This document shows positions 2,689 to 2,873 of a stretch of 53,800 nucleotides of DNA, one piece after another. The notes beneath the pieces were generated by a model that had not been told where the DNA came from, did no database searches, and saw only the letters and a list, made by a program, of their open reading frames with translations. The number at the start of each line of letters is the position of its first letter. Positions within the stretch are counted from its first letter, which is position 1. A program made the translations under genes and the position numbers. Origin of the DNA: an uncultured Porphyromonas sp. (lineage in GTDB: Bacteria; Bacteroidota; Bacteroidia; Bacteroidales; Porphyromonadaceae); NCBI RefSeq assembly GCF_947254915.1, contig NZ_CAMYEZ010000001.1, forward strand, positions 1 through 53,800. The letters run 5' to 3'.

Positions 2689-2873
2689 CCCGAGGAAATC
2701 GCACATACCTCGGTAGAAAACAAAAAACCTCCACCGAGGGACGAAAAAATTCTTCGGAACTTTCATTTCATTCTTCCGAACTTTCATTTCATTCTTCCGA
2801 AGTTTTATTTCATTCTTCCGAGGAAATGGTTGATTTCCTCCGAGCTATTTAGTGAATTCTTCCGAGGAATTTG
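2689..2873 (+). repeat. Dispersed 21/22-bp-periodic palindromic array element, copy 1
   Basis: Terminal hairpin CCGAGG..CCTCGG at 2690-2713, near-perfect 21-bp tandem units TTCTTCCGAACTTTCATTTCA, then TTCTTCCGAGGAA palindromes. Homologous to four other copies. Confidence 0.9.

Follow-up and report, generated by a model that had tools for sequence, protein, structure and literature searches.

Copies in the window

The window, by which we mean the whole 53.8-kb stretch of DNA analysed here, contains five copies of a dispersed repeat. All five exist at the places given in the initial annotation, and when aligned they have a mean column identity of 71%. The features below include the matches to an nhmmer profile of the full element, to which the model positions refer, and the sequences accompanying the one complete copy.

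2691..2873, plus strand: copy 1, core only, without ISAs1-type arms (nhmmer match to the full-element profile, model 62-245)
12675..12980, minus strand: copy 2, extending from a degenerate left TIR through the left arm and core into most of the right arm (model 2-309)
22434..22524, minus strand: right-arm fragment without core (model 271-361; nhmmer E = 3e-6)
30767..31063, minus strand: copy 3, core and right arm, ending in the right TIR (profile match)
47422..47592, plus strand: copy 4, core only (profile match, model 67-237)
51029..51036, minus strand: -7 box beside copy 5, TACCTTTG, pointing away from copy 5
51068..51077, no strand: first target-site duplication (TSD) of copy 5, CCGAAAGAAG; this 10-mer is single in the empty site of the sister genome G009
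51078..51423, minus strand: copy 5, complete 346-bp element with both TIRs (profile match, model 2-362)
51424..51433, no strand: second TSD of copy 5, CCGAAACAAG, identical to the first at 9 of 10 positions
2749-2821, 12813-12875, 47476-47538 and 51258-51320: period-21 stretches found by Tandem Repeats Finder

The period of 21 was thus reported by Tandem Repeats Finder in four of the five copies. The right-arm fragment at 22434-22524 is a sixth piece of the element in the window and was absent from the initial annotation. Copy 1 sits between two divergent -7 boxes, and a copy is present at the orthologous locus of G009; the same holds for the G009 locus orthologous to copy 3. The right TIR of copy 3, GAGCTGACGCATCATA at 30767-30782, has two mismatches, and its left arm is replaced by heptad repeats. 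Copy 2 is without a right TIR, and where the window has 364 bp (about 12644-13007), G009 has only 7 bp, with junctions that are not clean. A separate 175-bp IS5-type MITE begins 32 bp downstream of copy 4.

The full element and its copy number

The host assembly comprises 2.03 Mb in 174 contigs (348 contig ends), has a G+C content of 52.7% and is 99.3% complete. An nhmmer profile built from the five window copies gave 399 raw and 238 non-overlapping matches in this genome, 158 of them near full length, and the five source copies scored E = 1e-57 to 1e-68 with their own profile. Alignment of 138 copies together with 200-bp flanks revealed conservation beyond the repeat, which starts at CAGGGCTGACGCATTATA and ends at TATAATGCGTCAGCCCTG approximately 360 bp away; in the consensus of these copies the two sequences are TIRs of 18 bp. 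The dispersed repeat is the conserved core, about 185 bp in length, of a larger element, the full form of which measures 341-389 bp. Earlier it had been stated that there was no TIR, TSD or transposase, a view that came from coordinates covering the core only: in addition to the 18-bp TIRs there are 10-bp TSDs and an ISAs1-family insertion sequence (IS) with the same TIR, as described below.

A full-element profile of 362 positions was made from 22 complete copies. It has 246 non-overlapping matches in the genome, amounting to 52,722 bp or 2.6% of the assembly. Classified by their coverage of the profile, 37 of these matches contain both arms and the core, 43 the left arm and the core, 15 the core and the right arm and 69 the core alone, and the remaining 82 are fragments. 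As many as 55 of the 82 fragments touch a contig end, and 76 of the 348 contig ends lie no more than 300 bp from a match. The element has no ORF of its own, as its full consensus contains stops in all six frames. It is a very abundant gene-less MITE family of a Porphyromonas clade, and it is among the commonest sequences in its genome. That 2.6% of a 2-Mb genome in a human-associated Porphyromonas clade consists of this MITE family has practical consequences as well: the copies break short-read assemblies and adjoin synteny breaks between sister species, and they therefore matter for assembly, binning and comparative genomics.

The full element (E <= 1e-8) was found in 12 of 60 other genomes of the genus. 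First-look candidates number 76-198 in the carriers, except for G008 with 17 candidates and only 2 matches. In the non-matching genomes nearly all counts of first-look candidates are between 2 and 36, the exception being G064 with 133 candidates and no scored match. In the more distant carriers the match is limited to the central units of the core. Among the public genomes listed as matching the central-unit pattern are Porphyromonas uenonis DSM 23387 and several uncultured Porphyromonas sp.

Evidence for transposition

Both TIRs with at most three mismatches are found in 28 copies, and 37 matches reach both ends of the profile model. These 37 full copies were searched for TSDs, and both ends could be located in 29. 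The flanking 10-mers agree at seven or more of the ten positions in 16 of the 29 copies, and six of these are perfect, against 18 of 5000 random controls. Two further copies have apparently the same duplication shifted by one base. The length of the duplication is 10 bp.

A clean empty site was examined in detail in one case, that of copy 5. In G009 the flanks of copy 5 are 98% identical to those in the window and abut with an overlap of 10 bp, and the 346 bp of the element are absent. The copy is also missing from the orthologous site of G004 and G076. With its TIRs, 10-bp TSDs and empty site the MITE is mobile, and its insertions are polymorphic between sister species. The suggestion of the initial annotation that this could be an undescribed mobile repeat family is supported; no description of the MITE family was found in the literature searched, which consisted of open-access text only. 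The closest relatives of copy 5 in its own genome are only 85-86% identical to it (copy C134 86%, copy C50 85%), even though it is a recent insertion.

The partner insertion sequence

Away from the cores, the own genome contains several TIR matches with a different interior which run off contig ends. Ends of this IS type run off four contig ends, and the interior is unassembled there. A search of the own assembly with the ISAs1 transposase family gave no match. Contigs shorter than about 2.5 kb are apparently missing from this assembly, and so the interior of the IS may simply be unassembled in the own genome.

A 102-bp IS end is present in 10 of the 60 other genomes of the genus. In the nearly complete genome G076, identical TIRs bound an IS of 1318 bp with a single ORF of 375 aa. 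The encoded protein is an ISAs1-family transposase (NF033564, E = 1.6e-85, profile positions 1-314 of 314), and it also matches the Pfam families PF13808 and PF01609. The second end of the G076 IS matches the start of the own contig C49. Members of the ISAs1 family have ends that begin with CAGGG and produce duplications of 8-10 bp according to ISfinder. Since the same TIRs bound this IS, the repeat can be assigned to the MITEs, and the DDE transposase of the 1318-bp IS presumably moves it in trans. The MITE and the G076 IS have only the 18-bp TIR in common, the arms and the core being unrelated to the IS interior; the MITE is not a simple deletion derivative of the IS. In general terms it is a known kind of element with some unusual habits, presumably mobilised by an ISAs1 transposase and very successful.

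Insertion upstream of promoters

The gene context was read from a crude ORF map made by greedy choice of ATG-started ORFs of at least 100 aa, and on this map 224 of the 246 element matches are intergenic. The core consensus is open in three frames, giving rise to spurious ORFs. After 18 short ORFs overlapping elements had been dropped, elements were found in 46 of the 80 intergenic regions between divergent genes, in 15 of the 106 between convergent genes and in 84 of the 1085 between tandem genes (chi-square p = 1.4e-6 for the three classes against the expectation by non-element intergenic base pairs).

An outward Bacteroidota -7 box (TAnnTTTG) starts 41-43 nt from 30 of 105 TIR ends, and in 19 of these the distance is 42 nt. 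The box occurs genome-wide at 0.305 per kb per strand, and approximately 0.1 cases at 41-43 nt are expected by chance. There is also a second small peak of seven TIR ends with the box at 31-32 nt, which is one helical turn closer. The fixed distance was observed at 11 of 35 left and 6 of 25 right MITE ends and at one of three left ends of the IS, and the full 1318-bp IS of G076 sits at the same distance from a promoter. In other Porphyromonas genomes (103 loci) the box is found 42-44 nt from 12 of 74 TIR ends. A co-oriented ORF follows within 150 nt after 20 of 29 fixed-distance boxes. No -7 box at the fixed distance was found for 75 of the 105 TIR ends, the -33 TTTG is at its expected place in only 4 of the 30 fixed-distance ends, and there is no sequence conservation between the TIR and the -7 box. 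In the case of copy 5, 42 nt separate the element end from the first base of the box TACCTTTG. Since G009 has the box in its empty site, the promoter predates the insertion. MITEs and the IS have an end 41 nt upstream of a -7 box far above chance, and the enrichment of MITEs between divergent genes can be traced to this placement of their ends.

The transposase probably places its cut by reference to a feature of the promoter or to a protein bound there. The yeast retrotransposon Ty3 is a eukaryotic case of promoter targeting: its integrase is tethered to Pol III factors, and it inserts at a fixed distance from the transcription start apparatus, as the MITE does here. The open-access literature that was searched contained no account of promoter-distance targeting by ISAs1 elements or of a ruler in a bacterial DDE transposon. 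If the fixed distance from the -7 box holds, it would represent promoter-directed transposition in bacteria with a directly testable mechanism, and it would explain how the elements can crowd in divergent promoter regions without killing genes.

Copies without arms

Both arms are present in only 37 of the 164 core-bearing copies, and both are missing from 69. In a stricter test for TIRs none was found near 101 of 158 copies. The median identity to the consensus is 0.816 for the core-only copies and 0.859 for the complete ones. In many core-only copies satellite arrays take the place of the arms, either heptads (TCTAAYC) or nonamers (CACTAGNNN). On a tree of the cores the core-only copies cluster (34 label changes, compared with 52.8 in shuffles and a shuffle minimum of 43), and in a clade of 26 such copies homology ends sharply at the core ends. 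This clustering and the sharp stop indicate that some core-only copies multiplied, or were kept, without ISAs1 ends.

Core-only copies have short inverted ends of their own, CGAGGAAATC...GATTTCCTCG, and no ISAs1 TIR. Discrete ends of this kind would fit a REP/BIME-like element moved by a tyrosine transposase (RAYT, IS200/IS605-type). No Y1_Tnp domain (PF01797) was found in the own genome by a search that was positive in 6 of 14 known genomes used as a control, and no gene flanked by inverted cores was seen. Moreover, at least two of the copies classed as core-only turn out to be MITEs that end 41 nt from a -7 box, C123 with a TIR and C89 with a degenerate one. We consider mobilisation by a RAYT very improbable.

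For 63 core-only copies, outward -7 boxes within 120 nt number 19 on the left side and 36 on the right side, where about 2.3 per side are expected, and their distance is not fixed. One core-only insertion that is absent from G009 (C11:13211-13515) has no TSD and no clear end. The core-only copies may be old MITEs in which the arms have been replaced, or they may represent an older element that was captured by ISAs1 ends.

Structure and register of the core array

For the anatomy of the core we used an alignment of 164 core-bearing copies to the profile. In model coordinates the core extends from CGAGGAAATC at position 62 to the vicinity of GATTTCCTCG at about 240. It consists of eight diverged units of 21-22 bp, each with a short dyad. 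The dyad centres are at model positions 85.5, 107, 128, 149, 170, 192.5, 213.5 and 235.5, giving spacings of 21.5, 21, 21, 21, 22.5, 21 and 22. The hairpin that had been noticed at one end is seen also in the 164-copy alignment, as GGAGGAA-N9-TTCCTCC. Across copies, every column of the three central units (ATTCTTCCGAAGTTTCATTTC), including those of the spacers, is 0.9-0.99 identical. Variation is greater in the five outer units, which nevertheless keep TTCCTC-S-G...GAG. The idea of diverging spacers between persistent cores therefore applies, loosely, to the outer units and fails for the three central ones. Conservation within the element is highest in the central units, where it equals or exceeds that of the TIRs, and these units stand out in the same way in core-only copies.

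The dyads that are constant among the copies are short: TTC-S-GAA, CTC(C)-N-(G)GAG, CTCC-GT-GGAG and CTC-NN-GAG. Complementarity was compared with the expectation from column frequencies in 52 dyad pairs, of which two covary; the others are invariant or vary independently. The covarying pairs are 81-90 (CG 68, AT 24, TA 7) and 62-84 (GC 35, CG 23). Pair 166-174, on the other hand, is complementary in only 61% of copies. The 13-bp palindrome TTCYTCSGARGAA proposed in the initial annotation was hence an over-reading, as the constant dyads are shorter and covariation is restricted to the two pairs. A dyad profile by innermost pairs was uninformative.

The phasing of the array is strict, as had been recognised from the window. 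Among 420 pairs of adjacent TTCYTCSGAA motifs lying 20-22 bp apart in the genome, 406 are spaced by exactly 21 bp, 2 by 20 bp and 12 by 22 bp. The motifs form 41 chains of two units, 166 of three, 14 of four and one of six. In the 37 complete copies there are 0.146 substitutions per site in the core, 0.196 in the left arm and 0.226 in the right arm. Per substitution, the core has 0.023 indels, the left arm 0.117 and the right arm 0.057, so that indels are 2.5-5 times rarer in the core than in the arms, a contrast possibly inflated by ascertainment, alignment and the gap costs of the profile. Together these data support a length or phase constraint on the core array.

Explanations for the array

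The best explanation, which we regard as probable in its entirety, is a joint one: a MITE mobilised by ISAs1, which tends to insert at a fixed distance upstream of promoters and carries the array as a passenger under constraint. The array would be a 21-bp minisatellite taken along by the MITE, with eight diverged units of which three are near-identical, and each minisatellite unit would hold a short TTC-S-GAA or CTC-N-GAG dyad. What the constraint serves is a separate matter, for which a phased, indel-poor array is well suited: with it one can test cleanly whether selection on a sequence carried by a MITE favours the spread of the element or the host.

The second possibility is one of the two readings offered in the initial annotation, namely a host landing pad. 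Here eight phased dyads on one face of the DNA would bind a dimeric or oligomeric host protein, and the element would have been co-opted as a mobile module for upstream regulation or chromosome organisation. The exact 21-bp register with few indels, the high conservation of the central units even in core-only copies and the location of the elements upstream of promoters speak for such a module. Also the two pairs 81-90 and 62-84 change on both sides, and in G076 the outer dyads have all changed to CCACGTGG with the central units kept. Several observations, however, point the other way. The remaining 50 of the 52 dyad pairs do not covary and breaks are uncompensated, as in pair 166-174. In the central units the spacers are as conserved as the dyads, so that the whole 21-bp unit is what is kept. 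In the own genome, 282 occurrences of TTCTTCCGAAG fall inside elements and a single one outside, from which it follows that no host regulon uses the motif. Array and promoter are about 103 nt apart at the left end of the element but 159 nt apart at the right end, and in core-only copies the distances scatter. Finally, the orientation of elements to neighbouring genes is unbiased (44 same, 36 opposite). No candidate for the cognate binding protein was identified, and we find a host landing pad rather unlikely.

The opposite reading is that of a trapped minisatellite without function, kept uniform by gene conversion among approximately 240 copies and tandem units and by descent from few founder lineages. 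There is a precedent in BrickBuilt, a MITE with a trapped tandem repeat (PMC4596501, as far as the consulted part of that paper describes it). The most uniform stretch consists of the three near-identical units, which are the best substrate for conversion, half-site covariation is almost absent, and searches for an RNA fold, a coding signal and predicted curvature were negative. Yet slippage and conversion should vary the number of units, as in BrickBuilt with 1 to 22.8 according to the same part of the paper, and here the number is near-fixed, with three in 166 chains. Copies depart from the consensus at 14.6-16.9% of core sites, and still indels per substitution are rarer than in the arms. 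In addition, these TIRs are carried far more often by the array-bearing form than by any other. A purely neutral passenger is to us somewhat unlikely.

Returning to the passenger under constraint, the array could act in cis for the element and not as part of a host regulon, as a spacer or as a protein-binding scaffold that aids the pairing of ends or the persistence of copies; we see this as quite possible, if short of probable. A more far-reaching version would have the ISAs1-family ruler read the promoter or the bound RNA polymerase and cut at one set distance upstream, approximately 41 nt from the -7 box or, less often, one helical turn nearer. In this Porphyromonas clade the result would be a rigid protein-binding array of eight sites, phased by two turns, in front of something like a hundred promoters, and the MITE would be a mobile upstream regulatory module rewiring promoters genome-wide. 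We put this forward as a distinctly unlikely scenario.

Products of the array were considered as well, in the form of a structured non-coding RNA, a terminator or a small-peptide repeat, given that 21 bp equal seven codons. The core consensus is open in three of the six frames, copy 1 folds better than its shuffles (z = -3.37), and contigs of two RNA libraries (X1 and X7) pile up on the central units. The summed depth of these contigs on the central units is 133-284, compared with mostly about 2-15 (mainly 6.5-15) on bins of the flanking genes, where one bin reaches 24-90; the data are available as contigs, and the best RNA-labelled runs contain at most 0.24 of the sampled words. This depth sums many copies, however, and may be due to DNA carry-over. 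Copy 2 folds no better than its shuffles (z = -0.07 and -0.18 for the two strands), and with these values set against that of copy 1 a consistent RNA structure was rejected. No Rfam family matches the 53.8-kb window at the gathering score. Conservation has no 3-base periodicity (0.84, 0.818 and 0.835 at the three codon positions), none of the six frames of the full element is open, and there is no strand bias to genes. An RNA or peptide product is hardly credible on these grounds. Intrinsic curvature of the array was rejected too: a wedge model with assumed parameters, applied to the 101 of 164 cores that are long enough, gave a median of 0.111 for cores and 0.132 for the genome, with no core above the 95th percentile.

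Comparison with known repeats

Plasmid iterons and centromere-like arrays consist of direct repeats of approximately 19-22 bp in helical register, contain short dyads and bind dimeric proteins cooperatively. An iteron array occurs once per replicon, beside the gene of its binding protein. The present arrays, by comparison, number about 240, are dispersed and have no candidate protein, and the likeness is one of form only.

The closest parallel among those considered is BrickBuilt, a MITE of P. gingivalis that has a leader and a tail and has trapped a tandem repeat (Klein et al., 2015; PMC4596501); what is said of it here follows the part of that paper that was consulted. The two belong to one host group at genus level, and similarly to BrickBuilt the element is an intergenic MITE with non-repetitive arms and short TIRs that match a resident IS family. 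Both have an internal tandem repeat of approximately two helical turns and no transposase remnant (PMC4596501). One-armed and armless copies are common in both, 11 of the 19 BrickBuilt copies having both arms and three neither (PMC4596501). The differences concern nearly every specific feature. The TIR of BrickBuilt is GAGACCTTTGCA-like and of the IS5 family (ISPg1/ISPg9), whereas that of our element is CAGGGCTGACGCATTATA and of the ISAs1 family. When units are compared by length and number, those of BrickBuilt are of 23 nt and vary from 1 to 22.8 per copy, and ours are of 21 and near-fixed. BrickBuilt has 19 copies, which make up 0.44% of its genome, compared with 246 matches (over tenfold more) and 2.6% here, and its TSDs are irregular (2-5 bp) instead of 10 bp. 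Of the outcomes that, according to the initial annotation, would speak against its interpretation, alignment with a described MITE is not seen for BrickBuilt as far as TIRs and unit length go, in the consulted part of the source. Spacers conserved like the cores, which make up half of the other outcome, did turn up in the central units.

The TIR of the element differs from those of all four P. gingivalis MITE groups in Table 2 of the same paper, namely BrickBuilt, MITEPgRS/464, MITE239 and MITE700 (PMC4596501, consulted in part). MITEPgRS/MITE464 resembles the element in being a MITE with internal tandem direct repeats. In the portion of the paper that was consulted it is described with 41-nt units, an IS5-type TIR and 10-20 copies, and it is unrelated to the element described here (PMC4596501). 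Its TIR in that source, GAGACTGTTGCA, was found on the 175-bp element next to copy 4. The outer units of the core contain CTCCGTGGAG.

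Associated elements and possible rearrangements

The core-only copy 4 of the ISAs1-type MITE (window 47422-47592, + strand) is followed downstream, after a gap of 32 bp, by a separate small element:

47625-47799, 175-bp MITE bounded by GAGACTGTTGCA...TGCAACAGTCTC

These terminal inverted repeats are the ones given for ISPg4 and MITEPgRS in PMC4596501. The TIR of the 175-bp MITE also adjoins or breaks into copies of the ISAs1-type element on contigs C8, C9, C99, C157 and C22 of the same genome, so the two families are nested. In the comparison of contig C25 (locus L142) with contig C217 of the sister genome G009, the synteny breaks coincide exactly with the elements at C25:9032-9214 and C25:14031-14238, and this exact placement suggests rearrangement through recombination between element copies.

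Reduced and variant forms

The following forms depart from the complete element:

22434-22524 (window), right-arm-only fragment with no core nearby
C5:17363-17440 (own genome), tiny element, about 75 bp long, with ISAs1-type TIRs
L012 1040-1340 (genome G076; also own contigs C53, C58 and C42), core variant with CCACGTGG at every outer dyad

The C5 element seems to be scarcely more than its two TIRs and is a minimal form that lacks the array. The core variant retains the central units (TTCCTCCGAAG); several sites of one element have here changed in concert. In the own genome CCACGTGG occurs 32 times inside elements vs 74 times outside.

Open reading frames and satellite arrays

Mechanical ORF listing yielded one frame spanning copy 4 together with the adjacent IS5-type MITE:

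47489-47812, 107-aa ORF

As three of the six reading frames of the core consensus are open, gene prediction on these elements may produce spurious small proteins. On a crude map of the own genome (greedily chosen ATG-started ORFs of at least 100 aa), 20 element hits were scored as inside ORFs.

Short satellite arrays were found in the window:

2609-2629, 6524-6551 and 31088-31115, heptad arrays (TCTAAYC)n
2645-2672 and 6573-6599, nonamer arrays (CACTAGNNN)n

The arrays are often sandwiched between core and promoter, with -7 boxes immediately downstream of them. By a crude pattern count, 11 of the 32 heptad arrays genome-wide lie within 150 bp of the studied element, and in G076 arrays of the heptad/nonamer type were found within a TIR-bounded copy.
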